From: a candidate division FCPU426 bacterium
GTDB lineage: Bacteria > Oederibacteriota > Muellerivitia > Muellerivitales > Muellerivitaceae
Length of the DNA stretch: 64,000 bases
Assembly (NCBI GenBank): GCA_963771075.1
Contig: CAVYSE010000023.1
Span: forward strand, 1 to 64,000
Direction: 5' to 3'
The translations under genes were made by a program, and so were the position numbers. The notes beneath the pieces were generated by a model that was given only the letters and a program-made list of their open reading frames with translations, ran no database searches and was not told where the DNA came from. Below are positions 47,706 to 64,000 of this stretch, one piece after another (position 1 is the first letter of the stretch; each line of letters opens with the position of its first letter).

Positions 47706-49013
47706 ATGCGGATCGCGGTGGTAGGTACGGGATATGTGGGTTTGGTGACGGGTTCCTGTTTCGCGGACCTGGGCAACCAAGTCATTTGCGTGGACGTGGA
47801 CCGCAAAAAGATCAAGGGCCTGCAAAAGGGCGTGGTCCCGATTTTTGAACCGGGTTTGGAAGAAGTTGTCCATCGAAATATGGGCAACCGCCTTACCTTT
47901 ACAACCGACTTGGCCAAGTCGGTCCGGGAATCCGACTTCATTTTCATCGCGGTCAGTACTCCCCCGGGCAAGGACGGGGAGGCGGATATCACCAATGTAA
48001 AGGCGGTAGCCCGTGGAATCGCCAAGGCCATCAATCGATACAAAATCATCATCAATAAAAGCACTGTTCCCATCGGCATGGGAGATGTGGTCACCCAGAT
48101 CATCATCAAGAACGGCCCTAAGGACGTTGCTTTTGACGTGGTTTCAAATCCTGAGTTTCTAAGGGAAGGTTCGGCGGTCATGGACCTTTTGCACCCCGAC
48201 CGGGTGGTCATCGGAGCCACCCGCCGATCGGCGGCCCAGAAGGTTGCGGAAATCTACAAACCCCTCAATAGCCCCGTTCTTATTACTGACCTGAAAAGCG
48301 CGGAGATGATCAAGTACGCCTCTAACGCTTTCTTGGCCACGAAGATCTCCTTTATCAACGAGATCGCTAATCTTTGCGACGCAGTGGGAGCGGATATCGG
48401 ACAGGTGGCCAAGGGAATGTCATATGACCCGCGTATCGGCGGCCAGTTCCTGAATGCCGGGTTGGGTTTCGGCGGGAGTTGCTTCCCGAAAGACGTATCC
48501 GCCCTTATCAAGATTGGTCAGAAGAGCCGGGCAGCTTTTCGGATCCTGCCCCAGGTAATGGATGTGAACCAAAACCAAAGATCCCTGTTCCTTCAAAAAA
48601 TTCGCCAAGTGTTGGGCCCCGTGAAAGGCAAAACTCTCGCGGTATGGGGCCTTTCGTTCAAGCCCAATACCGATGATATGCGCGAGGCCCCATCCCTGAC
48701 GATCATCCCCGCCCTCCTAAAGGCCAAGGCCAGCCTGAGACTATATGATCCCGTGGCAATGGAGAGGGCGAGGGACCATTTCAAGGGCGTAAGATTCGTC
48801 AAAAACCCCTATGAGGCCGCCCAAGGCGCCGACGCTGTGCTTGTTCTCACGGAATGGAATGAGTTCAAACAGGTGGATTTCAAGAAGCTTCGGGGGATCA
48901 TGCGACGGGCGGTGGTCATCGATGGGCGTAACATGTACGGCAGCGAGGAATTGACCGAAGAGGGATTCGCCTATTACGGCATGGGCCGGGGCGAGGTACT
49001 GGATTTCGGCTGA
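47706..49013 (+). CDS. ugd: UDP-glucose 6-dehydrogenase
   Basis: GTGYVGL, KSTVP, NPEFLREG, GFGGSCFPKD, FKPNTDDMRE. Confidence 0.94.
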   Translation: MRIAVVGTGYVGLVTGSCFADLGNQVICVDVDRKKIKGLQKGVVPIFEPGLEEVVHRNMGNRLTFTTDLAKSVRESDFIFIAVSTPPGKDGEADITNVKAVARGIAKAINRYKIIINKSTVPIGMGDVVTQIIIKNGPKDVAFDVVSNPEFLREGSAVMDLLHPDRVVIGATRRSAAQKVAEIYKPLNSPVLITDLKSAEMIKYASNAFLATKISFINEIANLCDAVGADIGQVAKGMSYDPRIGGQFLNAGLGFGGSCFPKDVSALIKIGQKSRAAFRILPQVMDVNQNQRSLFLQKIRQVLGPVKGKTLAVWGLSFKPNTDDMREAPSLTIIPALLKAKASLRLYDPVAMERARDHFKGVRFVKNPYEAAQGADAVLVLTEWNEFKQVDFKKLRGIMRRAVVIDGRNMYGSEELTEEGFAYYGMGRGEVLDFG

Positions 49014-49034
49014 TACCCGAGAGAAAGGCGTTCA

Positions 49035-49907
49035 TTGAAAATCGCTCTATTGGGATCAACGGGAATGCTGGGTTCGCGGGTGGCCCAGGAACTTTCCCGC
49101 CGTTCGCATCAGGTCCTGACGCCCAATCGGGACCAGGCGGATCTCACACGGCCTCTTTTACTGGAGAAGTTCTTCCGAGAAAACGATTTTGAGATATTAA
49201 TCAACTGCGCTGGCTATACGCGGGTGGATTTTTGCGAGGAACCCTCCCAGTTCCCCATCGCGCAGGCCGTAAATGGTTCCGGAGTAGCTTGGCTGGCTCG
49301 GTTTTGCCGTCAAACGAAACGGTTCCTTGTCCATTATTCCACCGATTACGTTTTTGACGGTTCCAAGGATGGCCCCTATGAGGAGTCGGATAGGCCCCAT
49401 CCGCTGAACGCCTACGGGCGTACCAAGTGGGAGGGGGAAAGGCTTTTGATGGCCGAAAACCCAAATTATTACATTATCCGAACCTCTTGGCTTTTCGGCC
49501 CGGGAGGCCGGAAACATTTCGTGACCTCGATGCTGGATATTTTCCGCACCCGTCCAAAGGCCGAGGTTGTTTCCGACCAGGTTGGCGCGCCCACCTATGC
49601 TCCCGACCTTGCCTGGTTTACCCTGGAGCTGTTGGAACGGAAAATTCCACCGGGAATCTTTCATTTTGCAAATAGGGGTTTTGCCTCATGGTTTGACTTT
49701 GCCGTATCGATCCAGGCAAAGAGCGGTTTGACCCAATGCCGGCTAGTGCCTGCCCTTACCGAGTTCGTATTCCGGCCCGCAGTTCGTCCCTCCAATTCCC
49801 GATTCAGCCTGGACCGTGTGGAGGGAATCCTGGGTAAACCAATCCGTCCTTGGACCGAGGCGTTGGACGAATATCTCACCAAGGAACTCGGAATTGAAAA
49901 AGCTTGA
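49035..49907 (+). CDS. rfbD: dTDP-4-dehydrorhamnose reductase
   Basis: GSTGMLG, STDYVFDG, YGRTK, DQVGAPT. Confidence 0.9.
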   Translation: MKIALLGSTGMLGSRVAQELSRRSHQVLTPNRDQADLTRPLLLEKFFRENDFEILINCAGYTRVDFCEEPSQFPIAQAVNGSGVAWLARFCRQTKRFLVHYSTDYVFDGSKDGPYEESDRPHPLNAYGRTKWEGERLLMAENPNYYIIRTSWLFGPGGRKHFVTSMLDIFRTRPKAEVVSDQVGAPTYAPDLAWFTLELLERKIPPGIFHFANRGFASWFDFAVSIQAKSGLTQCRLVPALTEFVFRPAVRPSNSRFSLDRVEGILGKPIRPWTEALDEYLTKELGIEKA

Positions 49908-50640
49908 TCTATCGGTGGTGATACCGGTTTATAACGAGGAAAAACGCCTCCCCAAGACCTTGGATGAGTCCTTAAGCTACTTGAAAAAATCCAAATTGAG
50001 CCATGAAATTCTTATTGTCGATGACGGCTCCAAGGACTTGACCTTAGAAAAAGTGGAATACTTCCGAAAAAAAGGGGGAGGCAGAGCTATTCGAGTTCTA
50101 AAACAGGAAGTTAATCAAGGCAAAGGGGCGGCGGTTAAAAGGGGTGCTTTGGAAGCGCAAGGAGAGATCATCCTTTACATGGACGCGGATAACGCGACCC
50201 CGCTTGATCAATTTGAAAGATTTCGACCCCAGTTCAATAAGGGGACCGATGTGGTCGTTGGGAGCCGGGCGATTGACCGAAGTATGGTGAAAGTTCATCA
50301 ACCCATTTATCGGGAAGCCATGGGTAGGTTTTTTAATGTTTTGGTTCAGTTAGCGGCCACTCCGGGCCTGCAAGACACCCAATGCGGGTTCAAGGCCTTT
50401 CGGCGCAGGGCCGCCCAGGCGGTATTTCCATTGCAAACGATCCACCGGTTTGGCTTTGACGTTGAAGTCCTTTATATAGCGCGCAAACAAGGCTGGTCCA
50501 TGACCGAGACGCCGGTGGAATGGTTCGACGCCCCTGGATCAAAAGTCCACGTATTCCGGGATTCCTCGACCATGTTTCTGGACCTGCTACTGATCCGCTA
50601 CAACGATCTTGCGGGCCGATACAAATCAAAACCCTCCTGA
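49894..50640 (+). CDS. GT2 dolichyl-phosphate beta-glucosyltransferase-like enzyme
   Basis: SVVIPVYNEEKRL, VDDGSKD, NQGKGAAV, DAD, DTQCGFKAF, FGFDVE. Confidence 0.88.
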   Translation: MKKLDLSVVIPVYNEEKRLPKTLDESLSYLKKSKLSHEILIVDDGSKDLTLEKVEYFRKKGGGRAIRVLKQEVNQGKGAAVKRGALEAQGEIILYMDADNATPLDQFERFRPQFNKGTDVVVGSRAIDRSMVKVHQPIYREAMGRFFNVLVQLAATPGLQDTQCGFKAFRRRAAQAVFPLQTIHRFGFDVEVLYIARKQGWSMTETPVEWFDAPGSKVHVFRDSSTMFLDLLLIRYNDLAGRYKSKPS

Positions 50641-50651
50641 AAGGCCTCTCC

Positions 50652-52103
50652 ATGGATTCCGCGGAAGGCCGGGCCCGCCGAATCGGTCGAAACACACTTT
50701 TTCTCCTTTCCACGGACGTGGCGGCCCGTCTGTTTTCATGGGCAGCCCTAGCTTTTCTTTGGCGTCAATGGACGGTTGAGACCTATGGCCAGTACGCCCT
50801 AATCAAAAACCTAGTGGCGGTATTCGCGACCGCTAGCGACATGGGATTGAACGCACTCACCATCCGAGAAGTGGCTTTCCGTAAGGATTTAGCCGGGTTT
50901 TATCTGCGTAATGTTATGGGAATCCGTGTGCTCTTTTCCTTAATTCTCATCGTGATACTTCTCTCCACTGGATATGTTTTGGGTTATGAGAAAACCATTC
51001 AAATTGGACTATTGATTATGGGCCTGAGGTTGCTTTTGGATTGTTCCTCGGGAGCCTATGTTTACCTTCTCCAGGCGCATGAACGGATGGGAATTCATGG
51101 GAGCATCATTATGGGAGCCAGTTTGTTTCGATTGGTAGGTACCGTCTTGGTGGTCGCCTTGGGCGGGGGTTTGACTCCGGTTTGTGCTGTTTGGGTCTTA
51201 AGCAGTGGGGTGACCTTGTTTGTGTTGGGAACCATGGGTACCCGAATGGGCTGGAAACTGGAATTTTCCATTTGGAACTGGGAAGAGGCCTACGGGGTGC
51301 TCCGGAACGCGCTTCCTCTGGCGGCTTTTGGGGCCTTTCAAATGCTTTATTACAGAGTGGACTCCATATTGCTGAAGAGTTTGAAAGGAAACGCATCGGT
51401 GGGCCTCTACGACGCTGCCGCGACTTTCTTGCTGGTGATTCTTTCCTTTTCCCAACATTTTGGGCTCTCAACTTTTCCCGTTTTTTCGACCGACCAAAAC
51501 CAAAAATCGGAATTTAAGAGGTTGGCCAGGAGATCTGTAAAATTTCTGATGGTTATGGGGTTTCCTATTTCCGTTGGCGGATTCCTCCTTGCCGGGCCCT
51601 TGATGTCTTTCGTCGGTGGCTCGAAATACATTTCCTCGGCACCCGGTTTTTCCATTTTGGCCCTTTCAACGGTTCCTTTTTTTCTTTCCAATGTTTATGT
51701 GAACGTGCTCATGGTGCGAAAGCCCAAGGCGTTGGTTTATCTTTATTTATTTCTCTTCGCGTTGAATGTGGGGCTTAATCTTTTATTGATTCCACGGTGG
51801 GACACCGTGGGCGCTGCTTGGGCCACTGTATTATGCGAGATTTTTGGCGTAATGCTTGGTTTGGGTCTGATTCGAAATGACCTAAGGCTGGAAGGTTCCA
51901 AAGGTTTTTTATGGTCATTAGTCGCTTCGGGTTTGGCGGCGGGCCTAATGGGACTAGGCATCAATTGGGACCCGCGCCTCTATTGGCTATTCCTGGGACC
52001 ACTAGTTTACGGCTTCGCCTTTTGGGTTTTGGGTGGTGTGGAAAAGGAGGATTGGCGGGCTCTTCGGAGTTTTGCGACCGGTAGGAAGGCTACCGTCGAT
52101 TAA
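50652..52103 (+). CDS. Wzx-type polysaccharide flippase
   Basis: MOP-family pattern: RNTLFL, YGQY, DMGL...IREVA, YYRVD.ILL, VGLY, NLLLIPRW..GAAWAT. Confidence 0.85.
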   Translation: MDSAEGRARRIGRNTLFLLSTDVAARLFSWAALAFLWRQWTVETYGQYALIKNLVAVFATASDMGLNALTIREVAFRKDLAGFYLRNVMGIRVLFSLILIVILLSTGYVLGYEKTIQIGLLIMGLRLLLDCSSGAYVYLLQAHERMGIHGSIIMGASLFRLVGTVLVVALGGGLTPVCAVWVLSSGVTLFVLGTMGTRMGWKLEFSIWNWEEAYGVLRNALPLAAFGAFQMLYYRVDSILLKSLKGNASVGLYDAAATFLLVILSFSQHFGLSTFPVFSTDQNQKSEFKRLARRSVKFLMVMGFPISVGGFLLAGPLMSFVGGSKYISSAPGFSILALSTVPFFLSNVYVNVLMVRKPKALVYLYLFLFALNVGLNLLLIPRWDTVGAAWATVLCEIFGVMLGLGLIRNDLRLEGSKGFLWSLVASGLAAGLMGLGINWDPRLYWLFLGPLVYGFAFWVLGGVEKEDWRALRSFATGRKATVD

Positions 52104-52872
52104 ACGGGGTGAGGTTGGATATTCTTGGTTTGGTGGCCGCGCAAAAGAGGGATAACCCGATGGGCTTCGGAAGGAACTTTTCGACATGCTGGGAAAACCA
52201 AACCACCCGGTCATAAAGCATCATCTGGGATCGGGGGATGATCTTTCGCCTTAAAACCTTGCCGTTCAGCCACCAGCCGAAGATTCCCAACAGGTTCAAG
52301 AAGCGGCAATACTCCACTTGAAAACCAGCCCTCTCCATTTTTTGATAAAGATCCTTTCGGTCGTAACGCCGGAAATGACCGTAACTTTCATCCATTGATC
52401 CATATAAATAGGGAAGAGCCGGGACAAAAAACATCAATCGGCCGCCTGACGGGAGCAATTTATAGCATTCGGTTAAGACCTTTTGATCATCGGCGATGTG
52501 TTCCAAGACATTGACACAGATGATGCTGTCAGGTTTGAAAGAGCGTAGGTGAGAAAGGGAATGATTTAAATCGATCTTTTGATAGGAAAGATTGTCATGT
52601 TCCCTCAACCGCTTTTTTGCTGAATTCAAATAGAGTTGATTGACGTCCGTGGCCAGAACCTGGCCGTGTCGGGCCAAAAAACCGGTGATATTGCCTGTGC
52701 CACATCCGATTTCCAAGATCCGATTTCCAATATAAGGGCGCAAAATACCGTAGATCCATTGATTGTAGTTGATCGCATTGGATAGATCGTCCAGGGTTTC
52801 CCTTTGACCGTCCCACCCCCTGTCATTGGGCCTATTTTTTTTCGATTTTTGGGATTTGTGATGAAGCGGCAT
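52090..52872 (-). CDS. Class I SAM-dependent methyltransferase (type associated with GT2 loci)
   Basis: ILEIGCGTG, NVLEHI, VPA...LYGSMD...GHFRRY; start could be 52905. Confidence 0.85.
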   Translation of the reverse strand: MPLHHKSQKSKKNRPNDRGWDGQRETLDDLSNAINYNQWIYGILRPYIGNRILEIGCGTGNITGFLARHGQVLATDVNQLYLNSAKKRLREHDNLSYQKIDLNHSLSHLRSFKPDSIICVNVLEHIADDQKVLTECYKLLPSGGRLMFFVPALPYLYGSMDESYGHFRRYDRKDLYQKMERAGFQVEYCRFLNLLGIFGWWLNGKVLRRKIIPRSQMMLYDRVVWFSQHVEKFLPKPIGLSLFCAATKPRISNLTPFNRR

Positions 52873-53136
52873 TCGGTTTTCGCTTTCGCCATGGCATAAA
52901 AACAATTGGTTGATTGGAATGAGGCATCATAACATCGAGTGGGAATCAAGAGCCTGTTTTCCCTTTGTTTTCATTTGGAATTAAACACAAGGTTGGATTT
53001 TTAATCCCCTTTTCCTTGCGGCTTCTAGTCTTGGCCTGCGATAATTCAGGCTTCCTTTCGGGAACGGATGAATAATAGTGGCATTTTGGTCCCTGGATAG
53101 CGATAAAGTCATTTCAACACGGAGCGATTCAATCCA

Positions 53137-53910
53137 ATGAAAGCGGTCATACTCGCGGGGGGGCTGGGTACCCGCATCACGGAAGAAACCCATCTCAAAC
53201 CCAAACCCATGATTGAGATCGGCGGAAAGCCCATTCTTTGGCACATCCTGAAGATCTATTCCCACTACGGTATCAATGATTTTGTGATCTGCTGCGGTTA
53301 TAAGGGTTACCTTATCAAGGAATATTTCGCCAATTATTTTCTTCACATGTCTGACGTGACCTTCGACATGGCCCATAACAAAATGGAGGTTCACCAGCAG
53401 AAGGCGGAACCATGGCGCGTGACCTTGGTCGATACGGGGGAGGAAACCATGACCGGTGGCCGCTTGAAGAGGGTGGCTGGCTACATCCAAAAAGAAGAAT
53501 CTTTTTGCTTCACCTATGGGGATGGCGTCAGCGACGTGAATATCAAAGAACTGGTGGCCTTCCATAAAGCCCAAAAAGTAAAAGCCACCATCACCGCAAC
53601 TTTGCCTCCCGGCCGTTTCGGAGCTTTGGATATCCAGGGGGACAAGGTTCGCAGTTTCAAGGAAAAGCCAAAAGGCGACGGAGCTATGATCAATGGAGGT
53701 TTTTTTGTCCTTTCGCCATCGGTTCTTGATTTGATCCAGGATGACAAAACGCTTTGGGAAAAAGAACCCCTGGAAAAATTGGCCGAATCCAACCAACTTG
53801 CCGCATACCACCATTCTGGCTTTTGGCAGCCCATGGATACCTTGCGGGATAAGGACCATTTGGAGAAGTTATGGTCTTCCGGCAAGGCTCCCTGGAAGGT
53901 CTGGGCATGA
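53137..53910 (+). CDS. rfbF: Glucose-1-phosphate cytidylyltransferase
   Basis: [46 protein letters not shown]. Confidence 0.96.
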
Positions 53911-54986
53911 ACCCGGGTTTTTGGGCTGGTAAAAGGATATTTCTCACGGGCCATACCGGTTTTAAAGGCTCCTGGCTTTCCCTTTGGCTGCAACAGTTGG
54001 GGGCCCAGGTAACGGGTTATGCCCTTCAACCGCCCACGAATCCCAGCCTGTTTGAGAGCGCCAAGGTTGCCGAAGGCATGAAGTCCGTCTTCGGGGATAT
54101 CCGCGACTTGAGCGCCTTGAAAAAGGCCATGGGCGAGGCGAAACCTGAGATTGTGATCCATTTGGCGGCCCAGTCCTTGGTTCGGGAATCCTACAATTTT
54201 CCCGTGGAAACCTACGAGATTAACGTGATGGGGACGGTCCATCTCCTGGAGGCCGTGCGCCAAACCCCCGGGGTTAAGGCGGTGGTCGTGGTCACAACGG
54301 ACAAATGTTATGAGAACCGCGAGTGGGCCTGGGGCTATCGGGAAAATGATCCCATGGGCGGGTTTGACGTTTACAGCAACAGCAAGGGTTGCGTGGAACT
54401 GGTCTCCGCGGCTTACCGCTCTTCCTTTTTTAATCCCCAAAGCTACCAAACCCATGGGGTTGCGGTGGCCACAGCCCGAGCGGGAAATGTCATTGGGGGA
54501 GGGGATTGGGCGAAGGACCGATTGATTCCCGATATTCTCTCCGCCTTTGAGTCGGGTCGGCCTGTTTTGATCCGTTCGCCCCATTCCATCCGTCCCTGGC
54601 AGCACGCGCTTGAGCCTCTTCGGGGCTACCTGACCCTGGCTGAGAAACTTTATCTGGATGGGCCCCTCTACGCTGAGGCTTGGAATTTCGGCCCTCAAGA
54701 TGAAGATAATCTTCCGGTGGAATGGCTGGTGAAGCGTTTGGCCGAGCTTTGGGGCAAGGGCGCCCAGTGGCAAATCGACAAAGGCGAACATCCCCATGAG
54801 GCTGCATTCTTAAAGTTGGATATTTCAAAGGCCCGGACCCGGTTGAATTGGCACCCAACCCTTCGTTTGGACAAGGCCTTAAGCCTTACGGTGGATTGGG
54901 CAAAGAAAAAGGCGGAGGGTAGAGCGCCGAAAACCCTTACCTTGGAGCAGATTCAAGCCTATCAATCGCTTATCTTGGAAAACTAA
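53907..54986 (+). CDS. rfbG: CDP-glucose 4,6-dehydratase
   Basis: [37 protein letters not shown]. Confidence 0.96.
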
Positions 54987-55011
54987 ATAATATGTTTTTA
55001 TTGAGGTTCAT

Positions 55012-56334
55012 GTGACCCAACCTAGTGATGAACTGCGCGCCCAAATACTGGCACTCTCCAAGCGTTTTCACAACACCCAATGGCCCCATAAGGATTTTGT
55101 GCCGGGAGAAAACCAGGTTCCCGTAAGCGGAAAAGTTTTCGATGGCGAGGACCTGTCCAATTTGTTGGACGCCTCGCTTGATTTCTGGCTGACCACCGGC
55201 AGGTATGCCCATGAATTTGAGAGGGGCTTTGCCGAGTTCATGGGGGTCCGTTATGCGATTCTGACGAATTCGGGATCCAGCGCCAACCTGCTGGCAGTAT
55301 CATGCCTGACCTCTAAAACGCTGGGGGAGAGGCGCTTGAAACCCGGGGACGAGGTCATCACTGTCGCGGCGGGGTTTCCGACCACGGTGAACCCGATCCT
55401 GCAAAACCAATTGGTGCCTGTTTTCATAGACGTGGAGATACCGACTTATAATATCGACCCGAATCAACTAGAAGCCGCGCGAAGTCCTAAAACCCGCGCG
55501 GTTATGATGGCCCATACTTTGGGAAACCCCTTCAATGTTGAGGCAGTCCAGGCTTTTGTCAAAAAATATGACCTGTGGCTCATCGAAGATTGCTGCGACG
55601 CGGTGGGTGCCCAATATGACGGGACCAAGTGCGGGACCTTTGGCCATATCGCTACGACCAGTTTTTATCCCGCCCACCACATCACGATGGGTGAGGGCGG
55701 AGCGGTTTTGACCAGTGACTCCAAGTTGAAAAAACTTATCGAGTCATTCCGAGATTGGGGACGGGATTGTTGGTGTGAGACCGGGCATGACAATACCTGC
55801 GGCAAGCGCTTTGATTGGAAACTGGGTGACCTGCCCCAAGGTTATGACCATAAATACACCTATTCCGAAATTGGGTATAACCTCAAAGTGACGGATATGC
55901 AGGCCGCCATCGGTGTTTCCCAGCTCAAGAAATTACCGGGTTTTATCCAGAAAAGATTGGAAAATTTCGAATATTTAAGTAAAGGTCTCTCCGGCCTGGA
56001 GGACTATTTGATACTACCCGCGGCCACCCTGAATTCCCAACCCAGCTGGTTTGGTTTTCCCCTCGCGGTCAAAGAAAAGGCGCCTTTTACTAGGGAGCAA
56101 TTGATAGCCCATCTTGACCAGGCCAAGGTCCACACCCGGCTACTGTTCGCGGGTAACATGACCCGCCAACCTGCCTATAAGGGGCTCGACTTCCGAGTGG
56201 TGGGGGACCTTCCGAATTCCGATTTCGTCATGAACCGGGTTTTCTGGATCGGGGTTTATCCGGGGTTGACGAAACCCATGTTGGAATATGTCATTGCGGT
56301 TTTTACCGCTTTTATCCAAAAATTGAAGAAATAG
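55012..56334 (+). CDS. rfbH: CDP-4-keto-6-deoxyglucose 3-dehydrase (E1)
   Basis: [28 protein letters not shown] (His in place of the PLP Lys), RDCWC...DNTC Fe-S motif, GYDHKY. Confidence 0.95.
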
Positions 56335-56366
56335 GCCGGTAAGAGACCGAGGAGCCTTTAAAAAAC

Positions 56367-58202
56367 ATGGCTAAAATTCAAAAAAACAAACAAATCAAGG
56401 TCACTGATTACATTTTCAGCCATTTAGTGAAGATCGGCGTACGGGATATCTTCATGATTTCCGGCGGGGGAGCCATGCATCTGGTGGATTCAGTGGGGAA
56501 ACAACCCGGACTGAATTACTATTGCCCCCATCATGAACAGGCGGCTGCTATCGCCGCGGAAGGCTACGCAAGGGTTTCGGGCAAGATGGGAGTTGTAGTT
56601 GTGACCAGCGGCCCGGGCGGTACCAACACCCTCACTGGGCTCATCGGCCAATGGCTTGATTCGGCGCCATGCCTTTATCTTTCCGGCCAGATCAAGCAGG
56701 AAACCTCCATCGCCTCTTTTCCCGGTTTGGGACTCCGGCAACTGGGAGACCAGGAAATCAACATTGTGGATATGGTCAAGCCCGTAACCAAATACGCTGT
56801 AATGCTCAAGGACCCCAAGACCATCCGCTACCACTTGGAAAAGGCTGTTTATTTGGCAACCCATGGCCGGCCAGGTCCTGTATGGCTGGATATGCCGTTG
56901 GATATCCAAGGTGCCATGATCGATCCGGATGACTTGCCCCCTTATGATCCTAAAGAGGACGAGTTAAGGACAGATGAGTTTGAACTTAAAGAAAAGGTTT
57001 CGAAAACCATCGAGCTACTGAAAAAAGCCCAACGGCCCGTCTTTCTCGCGGGAAACGGAATCCGCATCAGCGGGGCGCAAGACCTGTTCCTGAATCTGCT
57101 GAAGGATCTTCCCATTCCCGTTCTTTCCACCTTCAATGGATTTGATCTGATCGATTCCGAGAATCCGCAATATATAGGCAGGATCGGCACAATTGGTAAC
57201 CGGGCCGGCAATTTCGCCCTTCAAAACTCCGATCTTCTTCTCTGCGTTGGTTCCCGAAACAACATCCGGCAGATCAGCTATAACTGGAAGGCCTACGCTC
57301 GGGTGGCGAAAAAGGTAGTCGTGGATATCGATCCGGCCGAACTGAAAAAGCCCACCATCAAGCCGGACCTAGCCATTCAGGCTGACGCGAAGGCCTTTCT
57401 TTCGGAACTCCAAAAACAGTTGAAAAAATCATCCCTTCCCGAATTTTCCGATTGGTTGAAATGGACGCAAAAAAGGAAGAAACAATACCCAATCATCCAT
57501 GCGGAGCACATGAAGACCAAGGACAAGGTTGATCCCTATTATTTTTCCAAGGTATTAAGCGAATTATTGGGCCCCAAGGCCGTAGTCGTAACGGGTAACG
57601 CCACCGCGAGCGTTGCTTATTTCCAGGCGGGTGAAGTGAAGCAGGGCCAAAGGGTGATCTGGAACTCGGGCTGCGCCTCCATGGGTTTCGACCTCTCTGC
57701 CTCCATCGGCGCCTGCGTGGCGAACCATCAAAAAGATGTGGTCTGCCTCGCGGGGGAGGGAAGTCTGATGATGAATATTCAGGAACTTCAGACCGTCTCC
57801 CACCACCGGTTTCCCATTAAGCTCTTTGTCCTGAACAATAACGGTTACGTATCCATCAAGCAAACCCAGGAAAGTTTTTTCCAGGGCCACTACGTGGCCA
57901 CCGGCCCGAAGAGCGGGGTGACCTTCCCCGACATGGCCAAGATCGCCAAGGCTTTCCGCCTGCGTTATGAGCGAATCAAGGATCAAAAGGGTTTGAAAGC
58001 GAAATTGAGAAGCGTTCTCCGCAAAAAGGGACCGGTCTTGTGCGAGGTAATCCTGCCCGAATCCTATATCTTCTCGCCGAAACTTTCTTCCCAGCGCCTG
58101 CCGGACGGAAAGATGGTCTCCAAACCCTTGGAGGATATGTTCCCTTTCCTGGACCGGGAGGAGTTCAAGCGGAATATGCTGATCCCGGAATGGGAAGGAT
58201 AG
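56367..58202 (+). CDS. ThDP-dependent acetolactate-synthase-like carboligase (YerE-like)
   Basis: GGGAMHL, HHEQ, TSGPGGTN, GRPGPVW, ThDP motif GEGS...LNNNGY; directly after rfbH. Confidence 0.85.
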   Translation: MAKIQKNKQIKVTDYIFSHLVKIGVRDIFMISGGGAMHLVDSVGKQPGLNYYCPHHEQAAAIAAEGYARVSGKMGVVVVTSGPGGTNTLTGLIGQWLDSAPCLYLSGQIKQETSIASFPGLGLRQLGDQEINIVDMVKPVTKYAVMLKDPKTIRYHLEKAVYLATHGRPGPVWLDMPLDIQGAMIDPDDLPPYDPKEDELRTDEFELKEKVSKTIELLKKAQRPVFLAGNGIRISGAQDLFLNLLKDLPIPVLSTFNGFDLIDSENPQYIGRIGTIGNRAGNFALQNSDLLLCVGSRNNIRQISYNWKAYARVAKKVVVDIDPAELKKPTIKPDLAIQADAKAFLSELQKQLKKSSLPEFSDWLKWTQKRKKQYPIIHAEHMKTKDKVDPYYFSKVLSELLGPKAVVVTGNATASVAYFQAGEVKQGQRVIWNSGCASMGFDLSASIGACVANHQKDVVCLAGEGSLMMNIQELQTVSHHRFPIKLFVLNNNGYVSIKQTQESFFQGHYVATGPKSGVTFPDMAKIAKAFRLRYERIKDQKGLKAKLRSVLRKKGPVLCEVILPESYIFSPKLSSQRLPDGKMVSKPLEDMFPFLDREEFKRNMLIPEWEG

Positions 58203-58261
58203 AACTTAGACACGCAGGCTCAAATAAGCTGAATCACTTTTAAATGTGAAGGGGTGCGACG

Positions 58262-59350
58262 ATGAGAAGCGACATATTCGAGGACCTGTTCGTGCTGGAG
58301 ATGGCCAACAACCATTGGGGCAAACTAGAGCGTGGAATGAAGATCATCACCGATTTTGCCCGGATCGTTCGCTTCAACAATGTCCGAGCTGCGATCAAAC
58401 TCCAAGTCCGGGACGTGGACCAATTCATTCACAAGGATTTTCGGAACAGCGATATCCGCTACATTAAAAAGACCCTCGATACCAAGGTTTCCATCGCGGA
58501 CCTGACCCAAATGGCCCAGGCTGTCCGGAAAAGCGGCTGCATCCCCATGGCCACACCTTTTGACGAGCATTCGGTGGACATGTGCATGGAAATGGGGATC
58601 CAAATCATCAAGGTCGCCAGTTCCGACCTCAACGATTGGGTGTTACTGGAAAAAATAGCCAAGACCAAGAAACCCGTCATCGTCTCCACGGGCGGGTCCT
58701 CCCTGAAGGACCTAGACGACCTGGTGACCTTTTTTGAGAATCGCAACATTCTTTTGGCGATCAACCATTGCGTTTCGGTCTATCCTTCCGAGGACAAGGA
58801 ATTGGAGTTGAACCAGATCGATTTCCTGAAAAACCGCTATCCGAACCATATCATTGGTTTTTCCACGCATGAGTATCACGACTGGATCTCTTCCATTATG
58901 ATGGCCTATGCGAAAGGGGCTCGGACCTTCGAGCGACACATCGACATCCAAGCCGATAACATCCCGGTTTCGCCCTATTGCTCGCTTCCCGAGCAGGCTG
59001 ACCTATGGTTTAAAGCTTACCAAAAGGCAAAGGAAATGTGCGGGGCGAGCGGGGCCTCGAAGCGCAACCCGTCGGAAAAGGAGATCACCTACTTGGACGG
59101 ACTGGTGAGGGGAATCTACGCCAAGCGCGATCTGCCTGAAGGCCATATGCTTTTGCATGAGAGGCTGGAAGAGGACATTTACCTGGCTATCCCCCTGCAA
59201 AAGGGCCAGATTTCCTGCCGGGAATTGATGAGCGGAGAGGTATTACTGAAGGCCGTCAAAAGGGATCAGCCGATCCTGATCGATTGCATCGACAGCCCTT
59301 ACAGCAATAGTCCGGACTTAAAACAAATCATATACAACCGAGGAATTTAG
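58262..59350 (+). CDS. NeuB-family PEP-dependent ulosonate synthase with SAF domain
   Basis: EMANNH.G, IKLQ, TPFD, IKVAS, STG, HCVSVYP, GFSTHE, FERH, RGIYAKRDL. Confidence 0.85.
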   Translation: MRSDIFEDLFVLEMANNHWGKLERGMKIITDFARIVRFNNVRAAIKLQVRDVDQFIHKDFRNSDIRYIKKTLDTKVSIADLTQMAQAVRKSGCIPMATPFDEHSVDMCMEMGIQIIKVASSDLNDWVLLEKIAKTKKPVIVSTGGSSLKDLDDLVTFFENRNILLAINHCVSVYPSEDKELELNQIDFLKNRYPNHIIGFSTHEYHDWISSIMMAYAKGARTFERHIDIQADNIPVSPYCSLPEQADLWFKAYQKAKEMCGASGASKRNPSEKEITYLDGLVRGIYAKRDLPEGHMLLHERLEEDIYLAIPLQKGQISCRELMSGEVLLKAVKRDQPILIDCIDSPYSNSPDLKQIIYNRGI

Positions 59351-59396
59351 CCCCGCCCCAAACTCCCGTAAGAATGACTTTATTTAAAGGTGCGAA

Positions 59397-60338
59397 GTGA
59401 CGGACCCAAAATTAAACCTTTTCATCACCGGTGCGAATGGTTTCGTCGGTAAAAACATCTCGGAATATATCCGGTCGGTCTTCCCAGGCCGATACGCCGT
59501 CTTTGGACCTGCCCACCGGGAATTGGACCTGCTGGAAGCCGATAAGGTCGAGGCCTTCATGCGGGAAAACCGCATTGATCGCGTCATCCATTGCGCCAAT
59601 GTGGGGGGATCCCGAAAAACGGCTTATGATGCCGGAACCATCGATGTGGTGGAAAAGAATTTGCGAATGTTTTTCAACCTTGCGAGGTGCCTGGGTCCGG
59701 CGCGAAAAATGATCCACTTTGGGTCCGGCGCCCAATATGGCATGAAGCACTATCGGCCCGCCATGATGGAGGATTATTTTGGACTCCATGTCCCGGAGGA
59801 CTCTTACGGGTTCTCAAAGTATGTTATTTCCAACTATATCCAAAAGACCGATCGAATCCTGGAACTGAGAATTTTCGGGATGTTCGGAATATACGAGGAT
59901 TACGACTACAAATTCATTTCGAACGCCATCGTCAAGAACCTGTTCCATCTGCCTATTGTGATCAACCAAAATGTCTATTTTGATTATATGTATATCAAGG
60001 ACGCGGTGAAGTTAGTCGAGCGGTTTCTTTCAGCCGACCCGGCGCATAAGGCCTACAACTTGACTACGGGCAAGACCGTGGACCTCCTTACGATCGCGAA
60101 TACGATCAATGAGGTCTCGGATTTCAAATCCGAGATCATCGTCAAGAATTCGGGCCTGAACGTCGAATACAGCGGGGATAACCAGCGGTTGATGCGGGAA
60201 ATGAAATTCGACTTCACCTCCCTGCGGGATTCGGTGAGGGAATTGGTGGGTTACTACCGGGGAATCATGCCCCAAATCGATAGGTCGCGGATCGAGACGG
60301 ACGAATTCATCAAGTTCTGTAAAATAGTTAAAAACTAA
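59397..60338 (+). CDS. NAD-dependent epimerase/reductase (extended SDR)
   Basis: ITGANGFVG, GSGAQY, YGFSK. Confidence 0.88.
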   Translation: MTDPKLNLFITGANGFVGKNISEYIRSVFPGRYAVFGPAHRELDLLEADKVEAFMRENRIDRVIHCANVGGSRKTAYDAGTIDVVEKNLRMFFNLARCLGPARKMIHFGSGAQYGMKHYRPAMMEDYFGLHVPEDSYGFSKYVISNYIQKTDRILELRIFGMFGIYEDYDYKFISNAIVKNLFHLPIVINQNVYFDYMYIKDAVKLVERFLSADPAHKAYNLTTGKTVDLLTIANTINEVSDFKSEIIVKNSGLNVEYSGDNQRLMREMKFDFTSLRDSVRELVGYYRGIMPQIDRSRIETDEFIKFCKIVKN

Positions 60339-60361
60339 ATTATTTGGAAGGCGTTCCGGAC

Positions 60362-61714
60362 ATGCGAAGCCAGGCTTTGAGGGTGACTCGGTTTCTCGGC
60401 ATCGACCGGGCGGTGGGGTTCACCATTTTAGGTCGCGTTTGGTCCCTGGCCACCAGCGCGGTCAGCTTATGGATGATCGTGCATTTTCTGAACAAGGATG
60501 AGCAGGGCTTTTACTATACCTTTGGAAGTGTTCTGGGCCTCCAGATCTTTTTTGAGTTGGGACTCAGCTACGTCATATTACAGTACGCGAGTCACGAAAT
60601 GGCAGACCTGAAATTCAACGAACAAAGACTGGTTCAGGGCGACGCAGTCGCGAAGGCACGCCTAGCCTCCCTCCTTTGGTTCGCGATGAAATGGTACGGG
60701 GTAGTCGCATTCCTCGTTGTTTTGCTGGTCCTTCCCTCCGGTTTGTGGTTTTTCAGCAGCCATTACCCCAGCGATTTAGGAGTGGTTTGGAAGGGCCCCT
60801 GGACCATCCTCAGCTTGGCCACCGCCGCATCCTTGTTTTTGAGCCCGCTTTGGTCGATCGTGGAGGGCGTTGGCCGGGTTGCGGAAACCGCGATGATGCG
60901 AATGTGCCAGGGAATTTTCTCCACCCTGGTGATGTGGGCCGCCCTGTTTTCAGGGTGCAGGCTATACGCCTCCCCGATCTTGAGCAGTTTGAACGTCTTA
61001 TTCGCCTCCGCCTGGCTGATAGTTCGTTTCGGGCCCTTTCTATTGGACTTAATGAGGTCCCGCACTCCCGTCTATGGCGTGCGTTGGTGGGAAGAAATCT
61101 TTCCTTTTCAATGGAAGATCGCAGTGAGCTGGTTGAGCGGGTATTTCATCACCCAGCTCTATAACCCCGTCATGTTCGCCTATCACGGGGCCGCGGAAGC
61201 CGGCCGGATGGGGATGGCCCTTTCGATGTCCTCCAGCCTGTCGGGCGTAGCCTTGTCCTGGCTCTCGACCAAATCCTCCCCCTTTGGCCAGATGGTAGCC
61301 CGCAAAGACTACGAGTCCCTTGACCGGGTTTTTTTCCGCAGTTTATGGCAATCCTTAGGCTTGCTGGTGATGGCGGCGGGAGGGGTTTTCGCCATTTTGC
61401 TCTATTTAAAATACATCCATCATCCCATCGGGCTTCGGGTATTGGACCCTTTGCCATTGGCTTTCCTTTTTACGGCGACCATTATTCAGCATATTGTCAA
61501 CGCCGAAGCGGTTTACCTGAGGGCGCATAAAAAAGAGCCCTTCCTTTGGACCTCGGTCGCGGGTGGTGTCATGACCGCTTTATCCGTGTATATATTGGGC
61601 AAACCCTATGGAGCCATGGGCCTTTGCTCGGCGAATTTGGTCCTCGTGGCCATTATCGGGTTCGGGGCGGGTACCGTCATCTTCTTGAAATGCCGCCGTG
61701 AATGGCACGGTTAG
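60362..61714 (+). CDS. Wzx-like O-unit flippase
   Basis: EQGFYYTFGS...FFELGL, FPFQWKIAVSWLSGY, YLRAHKKEPF; many TM segments. Confidence 0.75.
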   Translation: MRSQALRVTRFLGIDRAVGFTILGRVWSLATSAVSLWMIVHFLNKDEQGFYYTFGSVLGLQIFFELGLSYVILQYASHEMADLKFNEQRLVQGDAVAKARLASLLWFAMKWYGVVAFLVVLLVLPSGLWFFSSHYPSDLGVVWKGPWTILSLATAASLFLSPLWSIVEGVGRVAETAMMRMCQGIFSTLVMWAALFSGCRLYASPILSSLNVLFASAWLIVRFGPFLLDLMRSRTPVYGVRWWEEIFPFQWKIAVSWLSGYFITQLYNPVMFAYHGAAEAGRMGMALSMSSSLSGVALSWLSTKSSPFGQMVARKDYESLDRVFFRSLWQSLGLLVMAAGGVFAILLYLKYIHHPIGLRVLDPLPLAFLFTATIIQHIVNAEAVYLRAHKKEPFLWTSVAGGVMTALSVYILGKPYGAMGLCSANLVLVAIIGFGAGTVIFLKCRREWHG

Positions 61715-61723
61715 GATAGTGAT

Positions 61724-62641
61724 ATGAATAAAATTTTGGTTTCCATTTGTATCCCGACTTTCAACCGTTCCCATGAGCTCGGTATGACGCTCCAAAGCCT
61801 TGTCCGGCAGAAGGGGTTTGATTCCACCGTTGAAATTGTGATCGTGGATAACGCCTCCACGGACTCAACGGAACAAACCGCGAAAAAGTTTGCCCGAAAA
61901 CACAAGAACATTCGTTATGTCCGAAATAAGACCAACATTGGTTCGGACAACAACATGGTCAAGGCGGCGATGCTGGGAAAGGGGACCTATATCAAACTGC
62001 TTAACGACAACAAGTCCTTCACGGCGGGCGCATTACAAAGGATGAAATCGATTTACAACGACGCCGAGGAATGCGTGGTGTTTTTCAAGAATGTGGGCGG
62101 GCACGGCATTACCCGAACCGCCACGGTGGATGATTTTTTGAGGGACGTGTCCATCCACTGCACTTGGCTCGCAGGGGTTTCCTTCCGCCGAGACCTTTTA
62201 CACCGGGTCGGTATCACAAAAGAGGATTATCCACCCTATATGTCGCAAACCGGGGTGATGTTGAAGTTATTGAAAGCTCGTCCGACCGCGCTGGTCGTGA
62301 GCGGACAATACATGACAGAACCAGTTGTACCGATACGAACGGGATATAATTTTTATGAGGTTTTTGGCCCTATCTATATCGGGTATTTGTCCAAACTGTT
62401 GCGAGAAAATATTATCACAAAATCCACCTTCAAAAAGATGAAGAGGGACATTCTCCATCGTGTCATCTTCCCTTTTACATTCGAAACCCTGTTTAACCGG
62501 AGGCTTAACAAATTGGGGACTGACAAGGCTCTTTATCATTTGTTTAAGAATTATAAAAAAGACTATTTGTTGTATTTGTTTCCACTTTGGGTCTTGAGAA
62601 AAATGTTGAAGGGGGGGTTTAAAAAAGCCGCCGAAGTTTAA
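61724..62641 (+). CDS. GT2 glycosyltransferase (RfbV/abequosyltransferase-like)
   Basis: SICIPTFNR, VDNASTD, NIGSDNN; AT-rich; follows the flippase. Confidence 0.8.
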   Translation: MNKILVSICIPTFNRSHELGMTLQSLVRQKGFDSTVEIVIVDNASTDSTEQTAKKFARKHKNIRYVRNKTNIGSDNNMVKAAMLGKGTYIKLLNDNKSFTAGALQRMKSIYNDAEECVVFFKNVGGHGITRTATVDDFLRDVSIHCTWLAGVSFRRDLLHRVGITKEDYPPYMSQTGVMLKLLKARPTALVVSGQYMTEPVVPIRTGYNFYEVFGPIYIGYLSKLLRENIITKSTFKKMKRDILHRVIFPFTFETLFNRRLNKLGTDKALYHLFKNYKKDYLLYLFPLWVLRKMLKGGFKKAAEV

Positions 62642-63059
62642 ACCGACACAAGTATGAATCGTCGAAAGTCGTTCTCCTCCTGGGCCGGATCGTGGTTTTT
62701 TTGGTTTTTTACTTATGTTTCGCGGCGAATACATTTTTATAACCTATTAAAATGGTGGCAAAGCCAACTTTTTCAGGAAAAGATTCAATATAGTCCAATG
62801 ATTTCCTGCGAAAATATTTGGGTCGAGAACTTAGTTGTTGTTCTTGAGTTTTTCAGAGGTTTCAGATTTTAACTTTTTCCTTCGTTAAATCTGGGGTTAA
62901 CTTGATCCCAGGCCCGCCCCATGGAAGGAGAGCTTTGCGGTAAGCCATTGGATATTCCTGCATTAGGATTTGTAATAGCTGGGTTGTCGGAAGATAATTA
63001 GATTCTAAAAATAATATTTCTTAACGAATTATTTGAAAATTAGTTCCTGGTTCAAAGGA

Positions 63060-64000
63060 ATGTCATTGCGACTGGCAAATAAAATCGGCAATAAACTAAT
63101 TAAAATCATCCATTCCCAGCTCGTTCGTTCTGAACTGTGTTCGGACAAAAATTATATTCTTCAATCAGTGGAAGACGGTTTTGCACAAAAGCGAAACGAC
63201 GTACAGGACCCATTGATCTTTGAGCGAATCATCCGTTCTTATAACAAGGCGAAAGCGGTTCAGTTCGATTCCCCTGGGTTTTATCAGGTCAGTAACGAAT
63301 GGTTGCCGATTTTTGAGGTTTATCTGGGTGAGGTCATGGCCACCCTGAAAAATGGAAACGTCGATAGGCTGAAATCCATTTACAACAATTTCTTTCGAGA
63401 CCCTTGCAGTGTTGGCCTGCACGGATTGCCACTCGACATGTTCAAGTGTTTCTTTTCCGGACACATCAGCGATCGCCACAAAAAATTATTCCTCACCGAT
63501 GTTCTTTACCGCCACAGGCTATGGAAAAATTTGGTGGGACCGTCTTTTGGGATCGAATCCTTGGAATCGCCTCTAAGGGGTAACCCTTACGGTTACTATA
63601 TCGGCAGAACTTTTATCAAGGCTGGTTCCGAGTACCAACATTATTACGCTATCTTGATTGAGAAGCTGGTTCGCGGAGATTGCCACAAAACGGTCGTGGA
63701 ATTGGGAGCCGGTTATGGTGGCATGGCCTATTACTTGGTTAGAGATAACTCGGATTTGACCTACATTGACTTCGACCTACCAGAAAATGTCGCGCTCACT
63801 GCCTTTTATCTTTTGACATGTTTCCCTGATAAAAAAATTGCTTTATTCGGGGAAATGGACCTGTCCCAGGATAAGGTGGAGGATTATGACCTGATCCTGA
63901 TGCCCAATTTTGAGATCCACAAGGTGAAAGACCAAAGCGTGGATTTAACCTTCAACTCTTACAGCCTCGCCGAAATGTCCAAGGAAACAATCGAGAATTA
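63060..64000 (+). CDS. Putative sugar O-methyltransferase, partial (runs off window end; absent from ORF track)
   Basis: Manual translation open from ATG 63060 (or TTG 63066): GNPYG, VVELGAGYGG, YIDFDLPE, FNSYSLAEMS. Confidence 0.75.
   Translation, partial: MSLRLANKIGNKLIKIIHSQLVRSELCSDKNYILQSVEDGFAQKRNDVQDPLIFERIIRSYNKAKAVQFDSPGFYQVSNEWLPIFEVYLGEVMATLKNGNVDRLKSIYNNFFRDPCSVGLHGLPLDMFKCFFSGHISDRHKKLFLTDVLYRHRLWKNLVGPSFGIESLESPLRGNPYGYYIGRTFIKAGSEYQHYYAILIEKLVRGDCHKTVVELGAGYGGMAYYLVRDNSDLTYIDFDLPENVALTAFYLLTCFPDKKIALFGEMDLSQDKVEDYDLILMPNFEIHKVKDQSVDLTFNSYSLAEMSKETIEN

Follow-up and report, generated by a model that had tools for sequence, protein, structure and literature searches.

A NeuB-like synthase as the most likely donor supplier of a YerE-type carboligase in a predicted branched-sugar gene cluster

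Here we report the analysis of a surface-sugar gene cluster in a candidate division FCPU426 bacterium (Oederibacteriota; assembly GCA_963771075.1), in which a homolog of the sialic acid synthase NeuB is encoded between a thiamine diphosphate (ThDP)-dependent carboligase and a short-chain dehydrogenase/reductase (SDR). The analyzed stretch of DNA, hereafter the window, spans the initial 64 kb of the 114-kb contig CAVYSE010000023.1, and the source genome is rated 96.7% complete. A first-pass annotation of the window described a contiguous series rfbF-rfbG-rfbH-ThDP-NeuB-like-SDR-flippase-GT2 and proposed that the NeuB homolog serves the ThDP enzyme instead of making a sialic acid. The series was confirmed as eight open reading frames (ORFs), all full length and on the plus strand, with intergenic gaps of -4 to 59 nt (Table 1). 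The genomic context supports the proposed role: the NeuB-like enzyme most likely supplies a 2-keto-3-deoxy acid as the donor for the ThDP enzyme in the synthesis of a predicted long-branched surface sugar. The logic of such a route is already known, and the likely new part is a NeuB-type donor synthase in place of the usual aldolase.

The main evidence comes from the neighborhoods of the clade of short NeuB-like proteins with an STHE motif to which the window protein belongs. We examined the best 80 of 306 relatives in genome contigs, 71 of them from Acidobacteriota and 9 from other groups, and 80 loci kept from 403 viral relatives, 55 of which belong to the short clade. In all 80 genome loci the short NeuB gene has a ThDP gene no more than 3.2 kb away, and all 55 viral short-clade loci contain one as well. 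In a sample of 401 genomes, the superclade occurs in 9, and a ThDP gene was detected within 1.5-kb flanks of five out of six short-clade matches. The genome loci further contain rfbF (60/80), rfbH (59/80, and 49/59 where there is at least 9 kb upstream), rfbG (56/80), an SDR of a type other than the window's (64/80), a PgfS/ArnC-like GT2 glycosyltransferase (62/80) and a phosphatase of the HAD superfamily (41/80), the last of which points to a phosphorylated product. In the viral short-clade loci, an rfbH-like gene is present in 44/55 and a dehydroquinate synthase (DHQS)-like gene in 28/55, with an SDR and DHQS pair beside the NeuB gene in 28/55, while PF02348 and HpcH genes occur in 1/55 each.

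The co-occurrence proposed as a check by the first-pass annotation holds in the opposite direction as well. Among 99 genomes of the host's phylum, 24 besides the host encode a related ThDP enzyme, and we examined 20 of these (G042, G047, G107 and G115 were left out). Exactly one aldol-type gene lies within 3 kb of the ThDP gene in 19 of the 20 loci, the twentieth ending at a contig edge. The occupants of this position are NeuB-cupin proteins (6 loci), HpcH (4), DmpG with acetaldehyde dehydrogenase (4), short NeuB (3) and long HMGL-like proteins (2). An aldolase, ThDP and reductase route was published by Steitz et al. 2022 (PMC9306805) with donor suppliers of two types: DmpG with a dehydrogenase forms the erwiniose arrangement, and the HpcH/citrate-lyase aldolase type the caryophyllose arrangement. 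Since the NeuB-like gene exchanges with DmpG and HpcH beside ThDP genes, it holds the published donor slot.

The genes expected for nonulosonate activation are missing not only from the window, as noted earlier, but also beyond it. The host genome encodes a single NeuB and has no match to the NeuC family PF02350, and no neuA was found further along the contig or elsewhere in the genome, where the only two PF02348 matches are KdsB, beside kdsA on contig C17, and IspD in the window. The kdsB frame (L216:3668-4654, in G000:C17) also shows an RfaE-type adenylyltransferase end, so that it represents a fused gene or two genes in one frame. With seeds from L186 and L197, no HpcH or DmpG match in the genome reached E 1e-8, and the L048 seed gave only partial matches. 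Across the 80 genome loci, a CMP-transferase profile that recovers the true neuA-type neighbors of control loci matched only once, and that match is a housekeeping KdsB. As a neuA control, family matches were compared by hand in 35 of the 80 genomes: a PF02348 gene lies within 8 kb of 10 out of 13 canonical-scoring NeuB genes, and within 10 kb of none of the 35 clade genes. The other three canonical-scoring NeuBs, which lack neuA, are located in rfbFGH-NeuB-KdsC-ThDP cassettes; they are mutually related (85% identity for the compared pair), and we count them as one further putative recruitment, that of a second NeuB lineage to this position.

The NeuB-like protein matches PF03102 with 131 bits and fails both equivalog cut-offs (TIGR03569, 117 versus 400; TIGR03586 for PseI, 110 versus 340). 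Its predicted structure (pLDDT 92.9) is a TIM barrel with a C-terminal domain that retains the closed NeuB architecture, with TM-scores of 0.89 to PDB 3G8R and 0.73 to Neisseria meningitidis NeuB (0.70-0.76 over the NeuB/PseI range). The closest structure, 3G8R, is a 'probable SpsE' of Chromobacterium violaceum that is 34% identical to the window protein and is closer to the sister group than to the short clade. The first-pass annotation had pointed to two deviating motifs, of which STHE in place of SDHT stands and is shared with 3G8R, whereas FERH was dropped as a diagnostic motif because ERH is also present in canonical NeuB (LERH in N. meningitidis). Residue positions were assigned by sequence alignment to N. 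meningitidis NeuB, and conservation was counted over 83 clade proteins. Of these, 81-83 retain the residues at positions E25, K53, Q55, T110, K129, S132, S154, Y186, S213, H215, E234 and H236, which we take to serve mainly in the binding of phosphoenolpyruvate (PEP) and metal and in catalysis. The N. meningitidis residues D247, T285, F288 and R314, presumably the contacts of N-acetylmannosamine (ManNAc), are replaced in the clade by S, Y, G/S/A and I/V (S237, Y277, G280 and I310 in the window protein); we found no paper confirming either of these two assignments. The nonulosonate synthases NeuB, PseI and LegI and the 2-keto-3-deoxynononate (KDN)-9-phosphate synthase have the same fold (TM 0.73-0.76) and the same PEP and metal residues; the window protein differs in falling far under the equivalog cut-offs, in its replaced presumed ManNAc contacts and in the absence of neuA and neuC. 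R50, H57 and R66 are nearly invariant in the clade and K69 is found in 76/83, and this patch could bind phosphate. Proteins 80-100% identical to the window's exist elsewhere, and those of Microcystis aeruginosa are 75% identical.

The ThDP enzyme scored below all acetolactate-synthase cut-offs among the best 25 of 54 families. Its nearest solved structure is 8RPH (439 bits), followed by 5AHK (264 bits), which we take to be PpYerE. In a FastTree phylogeny of 69 ThDP proteins, the partners of short NeuB are intermixed with HpcH- and HMGL-paired enzymes, and the DmpG partners and the NeuB-cupin partners (except L121) stand apart. The closest relative of the window enzyme, at 60% identity, is encoded in a ThDP-SDR-DHQS-HpcH cassette (L186).

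Comparison with known long-branch pathways, namely those of erwiniose (ErwI/J/E/F), caryophyllose (MMAR_2331/2332) and gastriose (MygI/MyGE/MygF), shows that they share with the window the genes for CDP-4-keto-3,6-dideoxyglucose, a YerE-type ThDP enzyme, an adjoining aldol enzyme, an SDR and a glycosyltransferase. The aldol enzyme of the window, however, has the PEP-dependent NeuB fold and is not a pyruvate aldolase, and in contrast to erwiniose and caryophyllose there is neither an acetaldehyde dehydrogenase nor the pair of DHQS-like and short-SDR genes (MMAR_2329/2330). The yersiniose A pathway (YerE/YerF) has rfbFGH, the ThDP carboligase and the SDR in common with the window, which differs in the extra aldol-type gene fixed beside the ThDP gene and in a ThDP enzyme nearer to JanthE than to 5AHK. 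No NeuB-type donor synthase was found in the literature searched; outside that search lie Krug et al. 2024, which reportedly surveyed over 200 YerE-like clusters, and the study of JanthE reported by Lanza et al. 2024, both of which may already show NeuB-like genes. The supplement of Steitz et al. has no mention of 'NeuB' or 'neuraminate', a branched-sugar review none of 'NeuB', and a NeuB phylogeny paper none of 'thiamine', '3G8R' or 'Chromobacterium'; the literature searched also gave no papers on ribo-heptulosonate, or on the lipooligosaccharide of Mycobacterium marinum together with dehydroquinate synthase.

In the proposed mechanism, RfbF, RfbG and RfbH, assigned by family match, make the keto sugar CDP-4-keto-3,6-dideoxyglucose, the NeuB-like enzyme would condense PEP with an aldose phosphate to a 2-keto-3-deoxy acid, and the ThDP enzyme would decarboxylate this acid and attach the remainder to C4 of the keto sugar. 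The missing E3 reductase may be replaced by a general reductase, the branch ketone may be reduced by the SDR, and the terminal phosphate might be stripped by an unlinked phosphatase or kept. The GT2 and the Wzx-like flippase would then incorporate the sugar into a repeat unit, and the adjacent methyltransferase may O-methylate it.

Stereochemistry may narrow the choice of the donor. The branch of caryophyllose is D-altro-1,3,4,5-tetrahydroxyhexyl (PMC5706390), so that its donor has three D-ribo centers, and both ErwE and MMAR_2332 prefer the D-ribo donor configuration (PMC9306805). The housekeeping acids 3-deoxy-arabino-heptulosonate 7-phosphate (DAHP) and 3-deoxy-manno-octulosonate (KDO) are D-arabino and D-manno, respectively (PMC12531865), which would explain why their synthases cannot serve. 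By contrast, KDN and similar products of the NeuB family have the D-glycero-D-galacto configuration, and Fischer-projection reasoning suggests that the NeuB facial selectivity applied to erythrose 4-phosphate should give D-ribo. Provided that the NeuB-like enzyme is the donor synthase, erythrose 4-phosphate is our best guess for the aldehyde, with about an even chance of being correct, and a pentose 5-phosphate is a doubtful second candidate. With erythrose 4-phosphate and PEP the product would be 3-deoxy-D-ribo-heptulosonate 7-phosphate, leading to a six-carbon caryophyllose-like branch that ends in CH2OH. In M. marinum, DHQS-like and SDR genes are found beside the aldolase and ThDP genes (PMC13354803, supplement), and such genes would remove the terminal oxygen of the branch. 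As the window lacks the DHQS-like and short-SDR genes, the branch predicted for it would terminate in CH2OH or the corresponding phosphate. The genomic context supports the expectation of a caryophyllose-like or new branched sugar as far as a long branch is predicted, but plain caryophyllose is unlikely and was dropped as the product, since the window has no counterpart of these two M. marinum genes. A kinase gene is present in all 28 viral loci that combine NeuB and DHQS; because it has no obvious role for a 7-phosphate product, a pentose phosphate, with a branch of seven carbons as in gastriose, is also possible.

The sister clade (35-45% identity) consists mostly of NeuB proteins with a cupin similar to D-lyxose isomerase, one of them also with a HAD protein. 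Among 80 metagenome loci of this clade, 37 have ThDP only, 12 NeuA only, none both, and 31 neither, many of the latter being short contigs. In a 113-row tree, the short clade has a support of 100 and is joined on a long branch to the NeuA-linked subgroup at 99. These data cut both ways: they suggest that the lineage makes a free ulosonate open to CMP activation, and that the CMP-transferase is gone where the ThDP enzyme is present.

Several observations weigh against the donor role of the NeuB-like enzyme, and we give them here together with the alternatives on which they bear. The loci are not independent, with 71/80 from Acidobacteriota and the viral loci related. Two viral loci are exceptions, L241 carrying both HpcH and NeuB and L237 having a PF02348 gene 5.6 kb away, and 2/55 viral ThDP partners are just 26% identical. 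The kinase of the NeuB and DHQS loci is superfluous to a simple erythrose 4-phosphate model. The L186 cassette matches MMAR_2329-2332 of M. marinum in gene set and sizes, but in annotation and gene length only, and the 120 matches listed include no mycobacterial protein. Moreover, 8RPH, the structure nearest to the window ThDP enzyme, is JanthE, which takes pyruvate too (PMC12188165), KdsB is present in the host genome, and the sister position of the NeuA-linked group indicates that this lineage is able to supply a CMP route. All three would fit an alternative in which the ThDP enzyme uses pyruvate, giving yersiniose, and the NeuB-like product is a separate ulosonic acid activated by KdsB or an unlinked CMP-transferase, as would the ability of the sister clade to pair with NeuA and HAD and the orphan NeuA-class matches that G007, G021 and G035 have on other contigs. 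Yet we regard this alternative as unlikely: it leaves the constant ThDP adjacency in genome (80/80) and viral (55/55) loci and the pattern of one aldolase per ThDP gene unexplained, the ThDP and NeuA contexts of the sister clade are mutually exclusive, and G034 has no PF02348 match and G024 none over the cut-off, both genomes being small and incomplete.

Other adverse points concern the integrity of the cluster. Neither an E3 reductase (DdhD/AscD) nor a phosphatase is encoded in it, and the single weak match to the E3-type family PF00970 lies elsewhere in the genome; the cofactor motif of the window ThDP enzyme is GEG instead of GDG, a variant shared by 3/70 short-clade partners; and an IS4 element and a GT2 fragment lie downstream. 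Together with the failure to find the cassette in three genomes of the same genus, this would suit a scenario in which the module is real elsewhere while the window copy is incomplete, decaying or devoted to another product (unreduced, phosphorylated, or a plain dideoxyhexose formed via the SDR). Such a scenario appears improbable given the eight full-length, tightly spaced ORFs and the existence elsewhere of an 87%-identical GT2 and of the closely related NeuB proteins mentioned above; both absences are also normal for the clade, as an E3-like gene occurs in only 2/80 loci and the HAD phosphatase is missing in 39/80.

Co-occurrence by itself gives no order of the steps, the aldehyde pocket differs from that of NeuB, and some sugars, such as shewanellose, have a C4 branch derived from pyruvate. 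The NeuB-like enzyme could then add PEP to the CDP-keto sugar or to a side chain that is already branched, with the ThDP enzyme acting before or after on the adduct. We consider this reverse order very improbable, since for ErwE the aldol step was found to come first (Steitz et al., PMC9306805), the NeuB-like gene alternates with the aldolase type concerned, the structural model keeps the closed NeuB architecture, and a HAD phosphatase as partner is consistent with a sugar-acid phosphate in free form. Supply of the 2-keto-3-deoxy acid donor by the NeuB-like enzyme thus remains the best explanation.

Among the remaining genes of the cluster, RfbH contains the SFYPAHH and cysteine motifs. Homologs of the window SDR adjoin ThDP genes with HpcH, NeuB-cupin and KDN-type partners, although this type was found in only 6/80 short-clade loci; a comparison with PDB gave one weak match and no close characterized relative. 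The flippase call is weak, as its NF041503 score is below the cut-off and no Pfam family matches, and a crude scan finds 7 hydrophobic segments. The GT2 gene has a GC content of 0.45 versus 0.53 for the genome, and similarity searches with its product returned no informative named relative and indicated no acceptor. The flippase and the GT2 are local additions and not conserved parts of the module, with homologs in 3/80 and 2/80 loci; of their proposed part in the pathway, presence is upheld and a core role is not. The O-methyltransferase of the window has no homolog in the other loci, where methyltransferases of other types occur in 29/80 and 24/80. A promoter and terminator scan stayed at chance level (13 versus 10.1 and 18 versus 16.5).

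Table 1. Genes of the predicted branched-sugar cluster, the adjoining methyltransferase, and loci of a second NeuB lineage
Feature	Coordinates	Strand	Evidence or remark
RfbF, glucose-1-phosphate cytidylyltransferase	53137..53910	+	TIGR02623 487 vs cut-off 300
RfbG, CDP-glucose 4,6-dehydratase	53907..54986	+	TIGR02622 509 vs cut-off 278
RfbH/DdhC (E1), C3 dehydratase	55012..56334	+	NF011936 739 vs cut-off 423
YerE/ErwE/JanthE-type ThDP carboligase, 611 aa	56367..58202	+	three TPP domains
NeuB-like PEP-dependent synthase, short STHE clade, predicted donor synthase	58262..59350	+	PF03102
Extended SDR, candidate YerF-like side-chain reductase	59397..60338	+	PF01370
Wzx-like flippase, ATG at 60362, local	60362..61714	+	NF041503 84 vs cut-off 300
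GT2 glycosyltransferase, candidate CDP-sugar transferase, local	61724..62641	+	PF00535
NanM-family sugar O-methyltransferase, possible tailoring	63033..64000 (ends at contig position 64127)	+	TIGR04371 88 vs cut-off 44
SGHE-motif NeuB lineage loci	L209:3103-9532, L210:873-9848, L317:4254-14000		three Acidobacteriota genomes

The cluster is embedded in other glycan genes. Upstream (window positions 47706-52905) are genes for a UDP-glucose dehydrogenase, RmlD, a GT2, a second flippase and an opposite-strand methyltransferase. Beyond the window, the O-methyltransferase is followed by an IS4 transposase, a GT2, an acetyltransferase and rml-like genes. In this stretch (G000:C23:64235-66000, L217:1736-3500), the IS4 element comes directly after the methyltransferase; downstream of it follow, in this order, a fragment that is similar to the 3' end of the GT2 gene (50-56% identity) but frameshifted, a further GT2 and a WbbJ-like acetyltransferase.

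Further arrangements were observed in related loci. The SGHE-motif NeuB proteins (Table 1) are about 300 aa long and about 34% identical to the window protein over 134 aa; they are encoded, together with a KdsC/KDN-9-phosphate-phosphatase-like HAD, between rfbH and ThDP genes with no neuA, and a longer branch would be expected from these loci, possibly one that derives from KDN. In L151, L154, L155, L167, L175 and others, NeuB-cupin fusions accompany a Gfo/Idh/MocA oxidoreductase, a HAD, a NeuA-like protein and TIGR04396, probably forming a CMP-ulosonate pathway. A Patescibacteria locus (L048:363-11119) has two adjacent ThDP cassettes, in which the ThDP gene is paired with a DmpG aldolase in the first case and a NeuB-like protein and HAD in the second, and L189 and L190 encode a 530-aa HMGL-like protein in the donor slot beside SDR and DHQS-like genes. 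On the viral contigs L227-L306, the NeuB-ThDP-SDR-rfbH module was seen in 55/80 kept loci of uncultured phages; about half of these modules include SDR, DHQS-like and kinase genes, and some have RegA or tail genes nearby. No short-clade member was found on PLSDB plasmids or in GenBank phages.

If the NeuB-like enzyme is indeed the donor synthase, a widespread clade that databases call sialic-acid synthase would obtain a testable function, which would cover the M. aeruginosa proteins and probably PDB 3G8R, and surveys of NeuB genes would over-count nonulosonate producers. The published branched-sugar scheme would extend to PEP-driven donors and to a new pair of C-C bond-forming enzymes, and new higher-carbon sugars would be predicted. 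More tentatively, at somewhat less than an even chance, the clade named N-acetylneuraminate synthase in many phyla and uncultured phages may represent a fourth kind of PEP carboxyketose synthase, which makes the C4 epimer of DAHP (3-deoxy-D-ribo-heptulosonate 7-phosphate) or its octulosonate analog, compounds beyond the reach of the housekeeping DAHP and KDO8P synthases, solely as a ThDP donor, the NeuB family having been recruited for this at least twice. This broader possibility would imply an undescribed series of sugars with C6-C8 branches.

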